Numbered from the stretch's first letter, positions 551 through 5,032 are shown. The stretch: 64,000 nt of DNA from Spirochaetia bacterium (GCA_963675665.1 OY776510.1:2816001-2880000), one strand, 5' to 3'. Made by a program: numbers and translations. Notes: generated by a model not told the origin, from the letters alone.

Positions 551-1096
551 ATGAAAAGGCTAATTTTGACAGTAATTGCAGTTGTTTCGGTTCTTTTGTT
601 ATTTTCATGCGGATCCGGCAGTTCGGATTTACCTGATTTCGTAATGGAACCGCCCATTTCTGATGATGCATTTTATGGTGTAGGATATGGCAAACAAGCG
701 AAAGAAAGCCTGTCCATTACCGTTGCGAAAACAAATGCAAGAGCTGATATCGCCAGGCAGATCAGCACCACAATTCAGGCTTCCGTAACTGATTATGCAC
801 AGGAAGCAGGAGTGGATGACAATACTCAGGTAATCAGTTTCGTTGAATCGGTAACAAGAGAAATCACTGATCAGAAATTATCCGGCGCCAAACAGATCCA
901 GATGGAAAGAGATAAAGACGGCGGTTTCTGGGTACTTATGCAGTATGATAAAGCTGCAATGATTGAGATGGTCTCAGAATCTTTCCAGAGAAACGAAGAC
1001 GCTGCTTTTGCTGAATTCAAGGCTGCACAGGCAATTGAGAAACTGGACTACCAGCTCCAGAATAATCCTACTGTTTCAGAACCTGTAGGTAAGTAA
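551..1096 (+). CDS. LPP20-family lipoprotein
   Basis: Lipobox LLFSC; 'PDFV...FYGVG...AKTNARADIARQISTTI' LPP20 signature; AGGAG RBS upstream. Confidence 0.8.
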   Translation: MKRLILTVIAVVSVLLLFSCGSGSSDLPDFVMEPPISDDAFYGVGYGKQAKESLSITVAKTNARADIARQISTTIQASVTDYAQEAGVDDNTQVISFVESVTREITDQKLSGAKQIQMERDKDGGFWVLMQYDKAAMIEMVSESFQRNEDAAFAEFKAAQAIEKLDYQLQNNPTVSEPVGK

Positions 1097-1114
1097 AAAA
1101 ATACAAAAAACCTG

Positions 1115-1152
1115 AAAGCTGATCAGTCTCTGATCAGCTTTATTCTTTTTTC
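1115..1152 (+). terminator. Hairpin / intrinsic terminator between the two LPP20 genes
   Basis: AAAGCTGATCAG-tct-CTGATCAGCTTT, a perfect 12-bp stem, followed by a T-rich tract. Confidence 0.65.
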
Positions 1153-1164
1153 TACGGGGGGATT

Positions 1165-2532
1165 ATGTTAAAAAGAAATCAACACGGAATCGGGATCATT
1201 ATGTTATTAACGACGGTTGCGGCCGCCGTTTTGCTGTTTATTACATCATGTGCTTCAACACCGGATAAGCCCGAATGGATGATCAATTATCCGATTGATA
1301 ATGCCTACTATATCGGAATCGCCGGATCGAACACGGGTAATCAGGCTGAAGATAATGAAATTGCCAAACAGCTCGCCATGTCGACGCTTTCCGCGGAAAT
1401 TTCTGTTGAAATCATCAGTGAGATCAATATTCGTACATCAGAAGACAATAAAGGAAATGCCGAACAGGCGGTAGAAGAAGCAATCTCACAACACGTAGCA
1501 CAAAACCTCAAGGCTGTAGAAACTGTTGACGGGTTCTATTCTCCTGAGGACGGATACTGGTACTACCTGAGACTGAACAAGGCTGAGTGGATGGCGATTC
1601 AAAAGAAGGAAATGGCCGATATCGAACGCAGGGTCAAGAACCTTGTAGAACCGGTGCTTGGTAATGCAGATCGCACAATGGCTGAGATTCTTCCCGTGCT
1701 TGTGGACGGCTGGTCGATTGTGAATGAATCCACATATCCCGGCATGATTGAAACCAGTCTGATGGGTGAAAAAGGTATGCTGATAGACCTTCTTGAACGG
1801 CAGATTGCACTCCAAATAGGTTCGTTATCCATAAATCTTTCGAGTGAAGAAATGGCAGCTGAAGCCGGACGGCCGGTCCCCCTTCAGTTTACAGTGAATA
1901 CATCCAAAGATAACAAACCAGGGCAGCTTCAGATAGATCTTGTCGATAGAAACAGCGGCAGGCCTCTGGTAAGCTGTACAACCCCCTCGAGCGGCAGATA
2001 CGACGATAATATTGATTTATCCGGCCTTGTTCCGGGCAAGAATTATATTACGGCAGTTCTGAACACAGACGTTCTCGGATATGAAGGAAAAGCAATTCAG
2101 CTCAACCCTCCGAAAACCGATTTTATGATCGATTTGCAGAAGATAAAAACCGGTTTATCTGTCGATTATACCGGCGATCTAGATGAATTTGAAAATGAGG
2201 CCGGAATCTACGGAACAATCAAGGCTATGCTTTCCGATTCTCTTCCGGTAAAGATCGAAAGCGGTGATGATTATACATTCGGAATTGACTTCAAGCTTAA
2301 TTACCGTGATGCCCCGCCGAATGATTACGGTTTCACTATCGTCTATATTAAGGCGAATATTTCAATACTGAGAAACGGTGCAAGCATTTACACATACGAG
2401 ACTGATGAAGCCAAAGGTGCCGGGTTAAACTGGACGCAGGCCAATACCAAGGGCCTTGAAAAGCTTTTTGAAGAATTCAGTTCAGACGGTGTTTTTGCTG
2501 AAGAAGCCGGCAAGGCATTCAGTATCGATTAG
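1165..2532 (+). CDS. LPP20-domain lipoprotein with C-terminal extension
   Basis: Lipobox FITSC; 'KPEWM...YYIGIA...AKQLAMSTLSAEISVEI' LPP20 motif; 455 aa. Confidence 0.75.
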   Translation: MLKRNQHGIGIIMLLTTVAAAVLLFITSCASTPDKPEWMINYPIDNAYYIGIAGSNTGNQAEDNEIAKQLAMSTLSAEISVEIISEINIRTSEDNKGNAEQAVEEAISQHVAQNLKAVETVDGFYSPEDGYWYYLRLNKAEWMAIQKKEMADIERRVKNLVEPVLGNADRTMAEILPVLVDGWSIVNESTYPGMIETSLMGEKGMLIDLLERQIALQIGSLSINLSSEEMAAEAGRPVPLQFTVNTSKDNKPGQLQIDLVDRNSGRPLVSCTTPSSGRYDDNIDLSGLVPGKNYITAVLNTDVLGYEGKAIQLNPPKTDFMIDLQKIKTGLSVDYTGDLDEFENEAGIYGTIKAMLSDSLPVKIESGDDYTFGIDFKLNYRDAPPNDYGFTIVYIKANISILRNGASIYTYETDEAKGAGLNWTQANTKGLEKLFEEFSSDGVFAEEAGKAFSID

Positions 2533-2631
2533 TTTATTTTACTGAAAGAGTAAATAATGGTAACCTCTGATATGATGTGACCCATGTCAAGTTAAAATAT
2601 CCAGGTTTTATCTATAAGATCCCCCCCCTGT

Positions 2632-2830
2632 CCAGGACAGGAAGAAAGATAGAACAACGTTTATGCGGCGATAGACCACTCTGATATTCGCGGATTGGTT
2701 ACCGCAGGTCAATGGGATCGTCGGGAGCTGCCTCTGTCTAAAACCGAGGATCAATATTATTATTGCCTCATAGAGGTGCCGAGGGTTCTCCTTTATCACT
2801 GTTGTTGTTCTATCCATCCTTCTGTCCTGG
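2632..2830 (-). ncRNA. Putative bridge RNA / seekRNA of the IS110 element
   Basis: Closed by long stems (CCAGGACAG 2632-2640 / CTGTCCTGG 2822-2830; GATAGAACAAC 2648-2658 / GTTGTTCTATC 2804-2814). Two internal stem-loop domains carry 7-9-nt matches to the target and the IS junctions (2679-2687, 2735-2743, 2771-2777). Confidence 0.85.
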
Positions 2831-2854
2831 TAGCTTATTAACCAACTATCGAAG

Positions 2855-3958
2855 TCATGCGACTTCTGTTCTACCTACCATCATTCCCCAAATAAATCCT
2901 GATAATTCTCTGGCAACTGCCGTAACAGTTTTCTGAGGGCATACCCCTCTACGAATCATCCTGAAATATTTCTTACTCAACCTTCTGCCGGCTTTATCAG
3001 CATAAGCTATTGTTTCAGCAGATTGTCCTTTCCTTCTCGCTGTCAGTCGTTTCGATGGCGAATACCTTTGGTAATGCCAGCTTGATTCCACTAACAGCCG
3101 TCGTAGCCTGGAGTTGCCGGCCTTCGTAATCCCGCCAAGCTTCCGGCCCTCTCCGCTTGAGTATTCTGACGGCACAAGTCCAAGATACGCCATGAAGGAT
3201 TCCGCTTTTTTAAATCTTCTGAAATCTCCTATCTCGCATACAAATGTTAATGCTGTTAATGTCTCTATACCTTTGAAACATCGAAGCCGGGATACCCTTT
3301 CTTTATATCTGTCTTCAGCAGCAATCTCTTCTATTTTTTCCTGCAACCGTTCAATCTTTTCCTCTAATTCCACAATCGCAAGATAATATTCTTTTAAAAC
3401 TTCTTTATGCATTACCTGTTCAAACTGCAAGTTTTTCAACCAGGTTCGATGCGCCCCTGTCCAGTACTTTTTCCCAATATCATATTTCTTCCCGTTCCTT
3501 AGCAGAAACTGTAAGAGCCTCTGTTTCTGTTTCCTCAAATCAATTTTCATATCGTTACACATCCTCATGTAATCACGAACTGATTCATCTGTGCGTGTCG
3601 GTATATTCACCGGTGTTATTTCCTGATTCCTTAATGCTCTGGCTAATTTGACTGCATCCCTCTTGTCTGTCTTTATTCGGTCTCCGGGTTTCCTCGGCAA
3701 TAATGATGGTGCTGCTACGTAACAGATAATTCCCATATCTTCAAGTAATCTATAAAGTGTAAATCCTGTAGGGCCTGCTTCGTAACAACACAGAATATTT
3801 TCTCCATTCTCTTTAAGTCGCTTGAAGAATCTTTTAATATTTCCGGGTTCGTTCCTGAGCTCTCTTTCAAACTCAGGATTCTGATAATTATCTCTGAATA
3901 CCGCTACTGCGATTGATTCCTTGTGGACATCCATCCCTACATAAATTACACTATTCAT
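2855..3958 (-). CDS. IS110-family transposase / bridge recombinase
   Basis: RuvC-like DEDD residues in GMDVHK, CYEAG, KTDKRDA; C-terminal GLVPSEYSSG catalytic-Ser motif and ITKAGNSRLRRLL. Start placed at ATG 3958 behind a GGAGG RBS (the track start at 4003 is probably an extension). Confidence 0.95.
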   Translation of the reverse strand: MNSVIYVGMDVHKESIAVAVFRDNYQNPEFERELRNEPGNIKRFFKRLKENGENILCCYEAGPTGFTLYRLLEDMGIICYVAAPSLLPRKPGDRIKTDKRDAVKLARALRNQEITPVNIPTRTDESVRDYMRMCNDMKIDLRKQKQRLLQFLLRNGKKYDIGKKYWTGAHRTWLKNLQFEQVMHKEVLKEYYLAIVELEEKIERLQEKIEEIAAEDRYKERVSRLRCFKGIETLTALTFVCEIGDFRRFKKAESFMAYLGLVPSEYSSGEGRKLGGITKAGNSRLRRLLVESSWHYQRYSPSKRLTARRKGQSAETIAYADKAGRRLSKKYFRMIRRGVCPQKTVTAVARELSGFIWGMMVGRTEVA

Positions 3959-4062
3959 AGTGGCCTCCGTTCCTTTGTATGTGGCGTGTCTGCGCTTTGC
4001 CATTAGCCATTGTGTAGGCTAATCCACGATTTTGCAAACACGGCGGTCACTTCATATTGTCT

Positions 4063-4120
4063 AAAAACCCTGAATTGGGGTCTTTAGAGGTTTGAAACAT
4101 TCTGTGTTTTAGAAGTCCCC
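4063..4120. repeat. REP-like palindromic element that served as the IS target (left arm at 2559-2568)
   Basis: Empty site reads AACCTCTAAAAACCC-tgaatt-GGGGTCTTTAGAGGTT, followed by a third related arm TTTTAGAAGTCCCC. Confidence 0.7.
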
Positions 4121-4303
4121 TTATCTTTCAGATTCTACCGGCTGTGAAAATTCGCCATTATCAGAAATATTACAACTACAGAAAATATCTGAAATTCCTC
4201 TCCGTAAACCGAACCGGGGATGTGCAGTCTCGCATACATCAGCAGGGCTGTACCGGTTTTCTGCGCTTGAATTCATGATGATTTTCTTATAATATCGGGT
4301 TTC

Positions 4304-4341
4304 GGCGGTCGCAGTTACCCGCCTTAACAAAACGACGGAGG
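4304..4341 (+). promoter_or_regulatory. preQ1 class I riboswitch (translational)
   Basis: GGCGG-TCGCAGTTAC-CCGCC-TTAACAAAACGA-C-GGAGG: 5-bp P1, a UCGCAGUxAC loop, and an A-rich tail abutting the Shine-Dalgarno; lies upstream of a queuosine precursor transporter; TATAAT at 4288-4293. Confidence 0.92.
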
Positions 4342-4348
4342 CACATCA

Positions 4349-5032
4349 ATGAATGCTCTTCTATGGTTTATAATGCTTATTATAAACTTTGCGGCAATAA
4401 TGCTTGCATACAGGCTCTGGGGTAAAACAGGGCTGTTTATCTGGATCCCGATATCGGTTATTGCGGCAAATATTCAGGTTTTAAAAACTGTTGAAATCTT
4501 CGGCTTGATTGCTACTCTCGGAAATATCGTATATGCGACATCCTTTCTTGTAACCGATATTCTGAGTGAAAATTACGGAAAAAAAGACGCGTCAAAGGCC
4601 GTCGGAATGGGTTTCTTTGCCCTGATCTCCATGACGGTGCTGATGCAGTTCGCACTTAATTTTATACCTCATCAATCAGATTTTGCTCAAGGCAGTCTTG
4701 AGACTATTTTCGGTATAATGCCCCGAATTGCAGCAGGCAGCCTTGCCGCCTATGCCCTCTCGCAGTTGCATGATGTTTGGGCCTATAACAGGCTGAAGGC
4801 CCGCAAACCCGGGAAAAAATACATCTGGATAAGAAACAACGCCTCAACAATGATCAGCCAGCTGATCGACAGTGTAGTATTTACGCTTATTGCGTTTGCA
4901 GGCGTGTTTGAGTTCGCCGTACTTGTTGAAATTCTTTTAACAACCTACCTTTTCAAATGGATTGTGGCGGCAGCCGATACGCCGTTTATATACCTGGCCC
5001 GAAGCTGGAAAGACAGGGGGCTGGTAGAGTAA
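4349..5032 (+). CDS. yhhQ: Queuosine precursor transporter (YhhQ/Vut_1, COG1738)
   Basis: Membrane protein with 'FLVTDILSENYG', 'RIAAGSLAAY..SQLHDV', 'WIRNNASTMISQLIDS', 'DTPFIY'; preceded by the preQ1 riboswitch. Confidence 0.92.
   Translation: MNALLWFIMLIINFAAIMLAYRLWGKTGLFIWIPISVIAANIQVLKTVEIFGLIATLGNIVYATSFLVTDILSENYGKKDASKAVGMGFFALISMTVLMQFALNFIPHQSDFAQGSLETIFGIMPRIAAGSLAAYALSQLHDVWAYNRLKARKPGKKYIWIRNNASTMISQLIDSVVFTLIAFAGVFEFAVLVEILLTTYLFKWIVAAADTPFIYLARSWKDRGLVE

Follow-up and report, generated by a model that had tools for sequence, protein, structure and literature searches.

The RNA encoded on the minus strand at positions 2632-2830 of a 64,000-nucleotide stretch of DNA from a Spirochaetia bacterium (GCA_963675665.1, OY776510.1:2816001-2880000; hereafter the window) is very probably the bridge RNA, or "long seekRNA", of an active IS1111-type element of the IS110 family. 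The bridge/seek RNA class was first described in 2024 (PMC11187229; PMC11208160), and the RNA examined here is a genuine, ordinary and well-supported member of it. An earlier interpretation made without database searches (the sequence-only reading) had proposed such an RNA with readable guides, and all the strings, matches and coordinates on which it relied are present in the sequence. Comparisons among the copies of the element and among its relatives now show which of the proposed guides follow the DNA that they should recognize.

The region lies in the 3' non-coding end of an IS110-family element on the minus strand (2567-4062, with both copies of the CT core included), whose extent is given by the stretch common to seven genome copies with differing flanks. 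When the genome was searched as one 5.15-Mb contig, these seven copies were found together with one diverged copy at 68% identity, in which the transposase gene is truncated. Six of the seven are identical over the 1,492-bp body (2569-4060, or 1,494 bp with one core counted), the seventh carries a single substitution, and the transposase gene is intact in every one. Seven near-identical copies argue for recent activity, and the element thus appears to have been active recently. RNA-only satellite copies, like Ssr9 of ISPpu9, are absent from the genome. Likewise, the contigs of four DNA runs from one study contain neither a circle junction nor an emptied site over 2300-4350; the loose ends of these contigs over the same interval are the flanks of other copies, and their single joint is the diverged copy.

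The ends of the element can be read with precision, since the seven copies begin to diverge exactly outside ...ACCT-CT-GATATG... and ...ATTGT-CT-AA..., which are the junctions that the sequence-only reading had deduced. Taken together, the seven sets of flanks fix the ends as ...ACCT-CT-GATATGATGTGACC... and ...GGTCACTTCATATTGT-CT-AAWA..., and the core is therefore CT, as had been claimed. This dinucleotide, at 2567-2568 on the RNA side (the right end on the transposase strand) and at 4061-4062 upstream of the transposase gene (the left end on that strand), is all that the two junctions share in every one of the seven copies. The target read from the flanks is ACCT-CT-AAWA, and the junction of an excised circle would read ATTGT-CT-GATAT. 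Subterminal inverted repeats of 13 bp lie one and three bases inside the ends, the core excluded. The RNA-side copy (ATATGATGTGACC, 2570-2582) is complementary at 12 of 13 positions to the transposase-side copy (GGTCACTTCATAT, 4045-4057), or, compared in one orientation, ATATGATGTGACC matches ATATGAAGTGACC; most relatives carry equivalent repeats. About 286 bp of non-coding DNA separate the stop codon (2855) from the end of the body (2569), and about 100 bp precede the start codon.

The transposase gene (2855-3958, minus strand) encodes 367 amino acids plus a stop, and its product is best described from its sequence as an IS110-family RNA-guided DEDD/Ser recombinase, in keeping with the original assignment. 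The protein matches Pfam PF01548 and PF02371 and also NCBIfam NF033542 ("IS110 family RNA-guided transposase"; score 240 bits, cut-off 140). Alignment to the IS621 recombinase (8WT6, E 2e-10) places D10, E60, D98, D101 and S268 on the catalytic positions, and these residues are invariant in five relatives. An alternative in-frame ATG at 4003 would give 382 amino acids, and the 367-residue call is based on the MNSV-type methionine that is the start in relatives. An identical protein is found in this genome only, and the nearest relatives reach at most 77% identity. ISEc45 is the nearest named relative found (38-45% identity by tblastn, in enterobacterial plasmid copies), and the IS4321/IS5075 transposases show local similarity only (37.5% over 96 residues by tblastn).

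Within the RNA region (2632-2830, minus strand), folds, a consensus structure and a sequence profile all describe a long closing stem around a target-binding and a donor-binding loop domain. A 9-bp closing stem joins 2632-2640 to 2822-2830. On the plus strand, the proposed guides appear as TAGAGGT at 2771-2777, TGTCTAAAA at 2735-2743 and again at 4058-4066, CTCTGATAT at 2679-2687 and again at 2565-2573, and GGTCAAT at 2707-2713, the last agreeing with ATTGTCT at five of seven positions. Both of the 9/9 junction matches that had been reported are real: the 64-kb window contains just two instances of each 9-mer, one in the RNA region and one at a junction, and shuffles of the whole window give means of 0.84 and 0.63 matches. 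Taken alone, the 7-mer ACCTCTA is ordinary, with four matches in the window where 4.4 are expected.

Folding energies fall below those of shuffled sequences on both strands (z -2.9 for minus and -3.6 for plus), and comparative evidence for the structure is considerable. A single-protein scan of species genomes yielded only six loci, so an alignment-based scan of metagenomes was needed; run with an alignment of five transposases, it recovered 80 loci at 39-57% protein identity. A sequence profile built from 28 aligned RNA regions matches the RNA core at 83 of 96 loci overall and at 69 of the 80 metagenome relatives, and every match is downstream of the transposase gene and shares its orientation. 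At least six of the 11 metagenome loci that were missed are contigs ending in the gene or just past it. The scaffold common to these RNAs runs GGAGAAYCCUCG, slot 1, AUGAGGC, a hairpin, GAUCCUCG, slot 2 and GAGGCAGCUCC in its first part, and CGACGA, a donor slot, UGCGGUANCCAANCCGCG, another donor slot and GAUCAACCGUCG in its second. Slots 1 and 2 are hypervariable within the conserved scaffold, and conservation along the RNA is highest in the second, donor domain.

In the consensus structure of the 28 sequences, 92.1% of cells form pairs, compared with 41-49% when partners are slid, and a compensatory change on both sides is seen in 22 of 34 pairs, with none of 500 shuffles reaching the observed values. 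The scaffold is thus conserved and its helices are backed by compensatory changes, which upholds the claim of a structured RNA with two loops. The inner hairpin of the target loop domain (GAGGCAAUA...UAUUGAUCCUC, 2746-2769, minus strand) comprises helices 5 and 6, both with compensatory changes, and a hairpin in the donor loop domain (UGCGG-UAACCAAU-CCGCG, 2689-2706, minus strand) is invariant in 28 of 28 aligned sequences. An Rfam search produced no family that covers the RNA, with two matches at chance level (E 4 and 5.7). The covariance models and tables published by Durrant et al. may already include this scaffold.

The most direct evidence for guide function comes from the target loop. 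Its 5' guide, GCACCUCU(A) (2771-2779, minus strand), is identical to the plus-strand left flank plus the CT core, and so pairs with the opposite strand; its ACCTCT matches all seven copies, and copy 5 agrees at eight of eight positions. The 3' guide, GGUUUUAG, is followed by ACA (2735-2745, minus strand), and its UUUUAG pairs with CTAAAA of the plus strand, which is the core plus the right flank. The ACA pairs in turn with TGT, the last bases of the element, at what is called the "handshake" position.

Relatives of the element insert at different sites, and the guides change with them. Slots were extracted for 57 loci, and the subterminal repeats were located automatically in the 54 that had enough flanking sequence. 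Before counting, 18 of these were removed by eye: six are other copies in the genome with the same RNA, and in the other 12 (L011, L012, L019, L027, L034, L039, L040, L052, L056, L068, L069 and L090) the repeat finder was off the repeat. Among the remaining 36 loci, which hold 34 distinct guide sets, the 5' guide agrees with its own RNA-side flank at a mean of 6.45 of 8 positions, compared with 4.10 (sd 0.91) for non-cognate flanks, and the 3' guide agrees with the other flank at a mean of 5.5 of 8, compared with 4.25. For either guide, none of 2,000 permutations reaches the cognate value. The 5' guide matches at seven or more of eight positions in 25 of 36 cognate pairs and in 11 of 1,150 non-cognate ones; left-flank matches, those of the 3' guide, are weaker and often involve two or three of the four variable bases. 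A further case is offered by the diverged copy in the same genome, where the flanks are AAAAAG-CT-ACGG and the RNA slots read AAAAAGCU and CCGUAG, both having changed with the flanks. The target guides therefore covary with insertion sites across relatives, which is the check that the sequence-only reading had suggested.

The natural target is itself a recurring sequence. In six of the seven insertions, the element interrupts the left arm of a palindromic repeat with the general form GGNACCTCTAAWAAYCC...GGR..TTAGAGGTNCC, and the flanks of these six copies rebuild the hairpin, the rest of which lies at 4063-4093 in the window. In four genomes of the same genus the flanking genes are present and the element is absent, with no exact empty site at the orthologous locus in these four because their intergenic DNA differs. 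In place of an orthologous empty site, the comparison used paralogous hairpins that carry no insertion; these are located elsewhere in the genome of the element, at 386486, 2935161 (minus strand) and 4993759.

The evidence for the donor loop is more uneven. Its 3' guide, AUAUCAG followed by AG (2679-2687, minus strand), pairs with CTGATAT of the plus strand, which is the core plus the element end. Agreement with the element's own end and core is complete here (7/7) and in 20 of 35 loci, and reaches at least 6/7 in 32 of the 35. The guide also switches with the type of end, appearing as ATATC-AG, ATACC-AG and ATGAG-AG, and it can be concluded that the 3' donor guide follows the element end. The 5' guide, CAUUGACC (2707-2714, minus strand), agrees at five of seven positions with the element end plus core (ATTGTCT), and is as imperfect as had been noted from the sequence. 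Across relatives its cognate mean is 4.37 of 7, compared with 3.39 for non-cognate ends. The slot reads ..GUCA or ..GUCC in relatives, and the second core base is matched in none of the 35 rows listed. Discontiguous donor pairing was also noted in IS621, according to the description of that system (PMC11208160).

The 9/9 matches of TGTCTAAAA and CTCTGATAT correspond exactly to the pairing of a guide and its handshake bases with one or the other junction of the inserted element. In the published account of IS621, each 3' guide is followed on its 3' side by two bases that, once strands have been exchanged, pair with the other DNA (PMC11208158). The handshake bases proposed from the sequence are indeed complementary in both loops here, with the AG that follows AUAUCAG pairing with the target bases CT ahead of the core, and that part of the proposal stands. 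Support from relatives is less even. The handshake bases of the target loop match the element end in 33 of 35 and 20 of 35 loci, counts that are no test of covariation because the element end is conserved. For the donor loop, the first handshake base agrees with the target in 13 of 35 loci, which is borderline (221 of 5,000 permutations reach it), and the second gives no signal (6 of 35 loci). Furthermore, AG is kept in L008, L011 and L012 despite their different targets. Given this constancy and the weak signal among relatives, the full donor-loop handshake in this element may be fortuitous.

Which strand is transcribed was a caveat of the sequence-only reading, which had remarked that outer stems pair better on the opposite strand. 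Folding cannot settle the matter, since 49 homologues show no preference: the more stable fold is that of the transposase strand in 20 and that of the opposite strand in 28 (Wilcoxon p 0.10), and in the window the values are -81.6 kcal/mol for the transposase strand and -84.1 for the opposite one. To this extent the caveat was apt. The outer stem as read on the transposase strand contains 32 G-U pairs and 14 A-C pairs, a weak indication that is biased toward this strand because the structure was derived on it, and in the other variable helices the ratio is near even. The raw count of 127 G-U against 23 A-C pairs was set aside as unusable, because three invariant U-G columns (84 cells) and a structure derived from one strand inflate it. 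In the subclade of the window, the basal stem of the donor domain has an A-C mismatch that would be a G-U pair on the other strand.

Guide geometry favors the transposase strand, which answers the caveat in part. On this strand only, all four guides end at their 3' sides in core-pairing bases, the extra bases come after the 3' guides, and the target loop precedes the donor loop, an order that the sequence-only reading had also stated. This geometry decides the choice of strand on the assumption that the mechanism is common with IS621. There is also precedent, in that RNAs purified with IS1111-type transposases are reported to map downstream of the gene, with co-transcription with the transposase mRNA proposed (PMC11187229). 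On geometry and precedent together, it can be stated with considerable confidence that the RNA would be read from the transposase (minus) strand.

An outward-facing TTGACA at 2585-2590 (minus strand), a candidate -35 box at the RNA-side end, would be followed by 17 nt and then by GACAAT of the other end once the ends are joined, and TTGACA-like hexamers adjoin the subterminal repeat in many relatives. By analogy with ISEc11 and ISEc21 as described (PMC11187229), TTGACA-17 nt-GACAAT is a plausible junction promoter. A promoter and terminator scan found sites no more commonly than in shuffles and none at the RNA, and it revealed no promoter-like site on the plus strand between 2569 and 2632.

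Several other explanations must be weighed against that of a bridge RNA with two working loops. Perhaps only the first half of the RNA guides, as a short seekRNA containing the target loop, with the transposase reading the element ends through the 13-bp repeats and the second domain serving as a signal for processing or as a scaffold. An 82-nt short seekRNA is reported to have been enough for transposition of ISEc11, with the role of the long form left open (PMC11187229), and an element with long subterminal repeats, a 5' donor guide that agrees at only five of seven positions, and a second core base that goes unmatched in all 35 rows listed would fit such an arrangement. The covariation evidence is also thinner for the donor loop than for the target loop, because donor ends vary little. 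Against this stand the 3' donor guide, fully matched in 20 of 35 loci and tracking three types of end (ATATC, ATACC and ATGAG), the fact that the supposedly passive second domain is conserved more strongly than any other part of the RNA, and a two-loop geometry that mirrors IS621, whose donor loop binds donor DNA according to the published accounts (PMC11208160; PMC11208158). On balance, guidance by the target loop without the donor loop is unlikely.

A functional transcript from the plus strand, antisense to the transposase and with the guides as reverse complements, is considerably less probable still. Its attractions are the slightly better fold in the window, the greater stability in 28 of 49 homologues, and the conversion of the subclade's A-C mismatch in the donor basal stem into a G-U pair. 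Such a transcript would carry core-pairing bases at the 5' ends of its guides and the extra bases before them, a mirror image of the IS621 complex as described (PMC11208158), and its loop order would turn to donor before target. The outer-stem pair counts, the downstream mapping of RNAs purified with IS1111-type transposases and their proposed co-transcription with the mRNA (PMC11187229), and the lack of a promoter-like plus-strand site between 2569 and 2632 in the scan likewise speak against it. Finally, the region might be mere structured 3' untranslated or terminal DNA, serving mRNA stability or end binding, with junction matches that arise by chance or as a by-product of terminal repeats. 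The 7-mer ACCTCTA is after all not rare in the window, and in two of the four matches the partner is an end of the element itself, these ends being inverted repeats. That view is contradicted by hypervariable slots that match their own host-DNA flanks, a result that no permutation reached for either slot, by the diverged copy, in which both slots changed together with the flanks, and by the compensatory substitutions in the helices; it can hardly be credited. The two-loop bridge RNA read from the minus strand is therefore the preferred explanation.

On the bridge RNA interpretation, the element would excise as a circle whose joined ends form the donor site ATTGT-CT-GATAT and probably complete a promoter to which one end supplies TTGACA and the other GACAAT. 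This promoter would transcribe the transposase gene and the downstream RNA as one, and the RNA of about 200 nt would fold so that a closing stem surrounds two internal-loop domains. Within the first loop, GCACCUCU would pair with one target strand (left flank plus CT) and GGUUUUAG with the other (CT plus right flank); in the second, AUAUCAG and, imperfectly, AUUGACC would hold the two sides of the donor junction. The RNA-bound DEDD/Ser recombinase would then exchange strands at the CT core, after which ACA and AG, located 3' of the 3' guides, could pair with partner DNA. Insertion would occur into ACCT-CT-AAWA, in an arm of the small palindromic repeat family, with the core as the sole duplication. 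The chemistry of this scheme is taken by analogy from IS621 and ISEc11, and we infer that the RNA is made as a transcript, that the transposase binds it and that the junction promoter operates. We infer also, with the sequence-only reading, that the recombinase is intact and programmable.

The layout of the element, with subterminal inverted repeats, an RNA 3' of the transposase gene, a CT core and its particular guide order, is of the IS1111 type, an assignment made by layout. Read in the direction of the transposase gene, ACCUCU is the complement of top-strand AGAGGT and lies 5' of UUUUAG, which is the same as the top strand. Subterminal repeats of about 7-17 bp, a downstream non-coding region and a top-strand-pairing guide that comes first are given as features of the IS1111 group (PMC11187229; PMC11208160). 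The RNA indeed lies 3' of the gene, as had been claimed, and this arrangement is not new, since the IS1111-type layout has already been described in those accounts. The seekRNAs of ISEc11, ISPa11, ISKpn4 and ISPst6 (Siddiquee et al. 2024, PMC11187229) share with the present RNA, as they are described, the downstream location, the subterminal repeats, the placement of the top-strand-pairing guide 5' of the bottom-strand-pairing guide, a long form (approximately 145-170 nt) that contains a shorter target-recognizing part, and a candidate circle-junction promoter. The transposase is somewhat longer here, at 367 amino acids compared with the 330-350 given for the IS1111 group (PMC11187229), and the target, ACCT-CT-AAWA within a palindromic repeat, is unlike those of the four elements named.

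Comparison with the accounts of IS621 (Durrant et al. 2024, PMC11208160; Hiraizumi et al. 2024, PMC11208158; PDB 8WT6) reveals both parallels and differences. In both systems the target loop is 5' of the donor loop, the DEDD and Ser catalytic residues align, and the natural target lies in a palindromic repeat. Also common to both (PMC11208158) are 5' and 3' guides that address opposite strands in each loop, a CT core at the 3' ends of the guides, and two extra bases after the 3' guides that are able to pair with partner DNA. The RNA is 3' of the gene here and 5' of it in IS621, the gene-plus-RNA module has the opposite orientation relative to the crossover sites, and the long subterminal repeats are unlike IS621 as it is described. 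Moreover, a long closing stem surrounds both loops here in place of the 5' stem-loop of IS621, the second core base is left unpaired by the 5' donor guide, unlike in the IS621 descriptions, and the similarity between the proteins is local only (E 2e-10).

Other elements offer closer or partial parallels. ISEc45, from E. coli and other enterobacteria, carries the same RNA scaffold downstream of its transposase gene (nhmmer E 7e-9 to 6e-5), with guides that differ from those of the present element. A full-text literature search found no paper describing an ISEc45 RNA, the listed matches being, by title, resistance and genome surveys. The name ISEc45 is that of the RefSeq annotation, and in the E. 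coli records listed the match overlies annotations of IS66-family transposases. In Pseudomonas putida, the account of ISPpu9 and ISPpu10 (PMC12288879) likewise describes an IS110-family element with seven copies in repetitive extragenic palindromes, and circular intermediates are reported there. The downstream small RNA of ISPpu9, Ssr9, is reported in the same account as not required and as occurring also in separate copies, in contrast to the genome examined here, where the RNA is not found apart from the element.

The known picture of these elements is unchanged by the present finding. Bridge RNAs are predicted in 93% of IS1111-group elements in the published survey (PMC11208160), so that those of this group had already been anticipated, and the protein family has already been named "RNA-guided transposase" by NCBI. 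What is gained is an RNA with readable guides and a defined natural target, a 367-aa recombinase, and approximately 70 relatives that carry one scaffold with different guides. These relatives form a natural "reprogramming series" for the less-studied layout in which the RNA is 3' of the gene, and they could aid the choice of orthologs for genome editing.

The element might also bear on how the two layouts are related. When the guides are placed in the frame of IS621 geometry, the RNA gene adjoins the same end as in IS621 (the "right donor" side) and would be transcribed toward that end along with the transposase gene. Because the RNA gene adjoins the equivalent end and points the other way, the IS1111 layout may be the IS110 layout with its gene-plus-RNA cassette inverted between unchanged crossover sites, and the mismatch of the 5' donor guide may be a built-in asymmetry; this is offered tentatively, as an idea that is more likely to fail than to hold. 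If it is true, the RNA has not moved between ends and the synaptic complex would match that of IS621. The mismatch of the 5' donor guide could then influence the order of strand exchange, or how far insertion is favored over excision.

The seven near-identical copies of the element and the diverged eighth copy lie near positions 553746, 2046245, 2621209, 2818569 (the copy in the window), 3725159, 4456572, 4981509 and 5030463 of the genome's contig (G000:C1), and all eight share the same chromosomal orientation. The chromosome's cumulative GC skew bottoms out near 0.8 Mb and peaks near 3.5 Mb, and thus the copies are distributed over both replichores. For a named strand, the chance that eight of eight elements would be oriented alike is approximately 1 in 128. 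In about half of the hairpins occupied by copies of the window's element, the other hairpin arm is a poorer target.

The copy in the window lies downstream of two adjacent open reading frames (window 551-2532; 181 and 455 amino acids), both of which begin with lipoprotein-like signal sequences, and it is located 35 bp past the stop codon of the second. Genomes from the same genus carry these two genes and lack the element.

The diverged copy, L008 (element 4456572-4458051 within locus G000:C1:4455072-4459551), shares 68% identity with the window's element and occupies a different target, AAAAAG|CT|ACGG, which its own guides match. Because its transposase gene is 3'-truncated and there is one mismatch in its donor guide, L008 is probably a decaying older resident of the genome.

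A metagenomic relative with 43% identity, L027, is inserted within the palindrome GGGCACCTCTAAAAATC...GATTTTTAGAGGTGCCC, which is much like the repeat targeted by the window's element. The insertion point within this palindrome differs from that used by the window's element, and the 5' guide of L027 matches its own insertion position at 8 of 8 nucleotides. In two other metagenomic relatives, L017 and L063, GG or AA replaces AG as the RNA-side junction dinucleotide, the opposite junction is still AG, and the 5' target guide tracks the odd dinucleotide (CC or UU). Judging from these junctions and guides, the two core copies of an element need not be identical.

The E. coli copies of ISEc45, the closest named relative found (L097-L099 and the listed E. 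coli records), are annotated as residing inside IS66-family transposase genes, which suggests that the ISEc45 RNA targets another mobile element. This would resemble ISEc21, for which targeting of other mobile elements, of the IS3 family, is reported in section 12 of PMC11187229.
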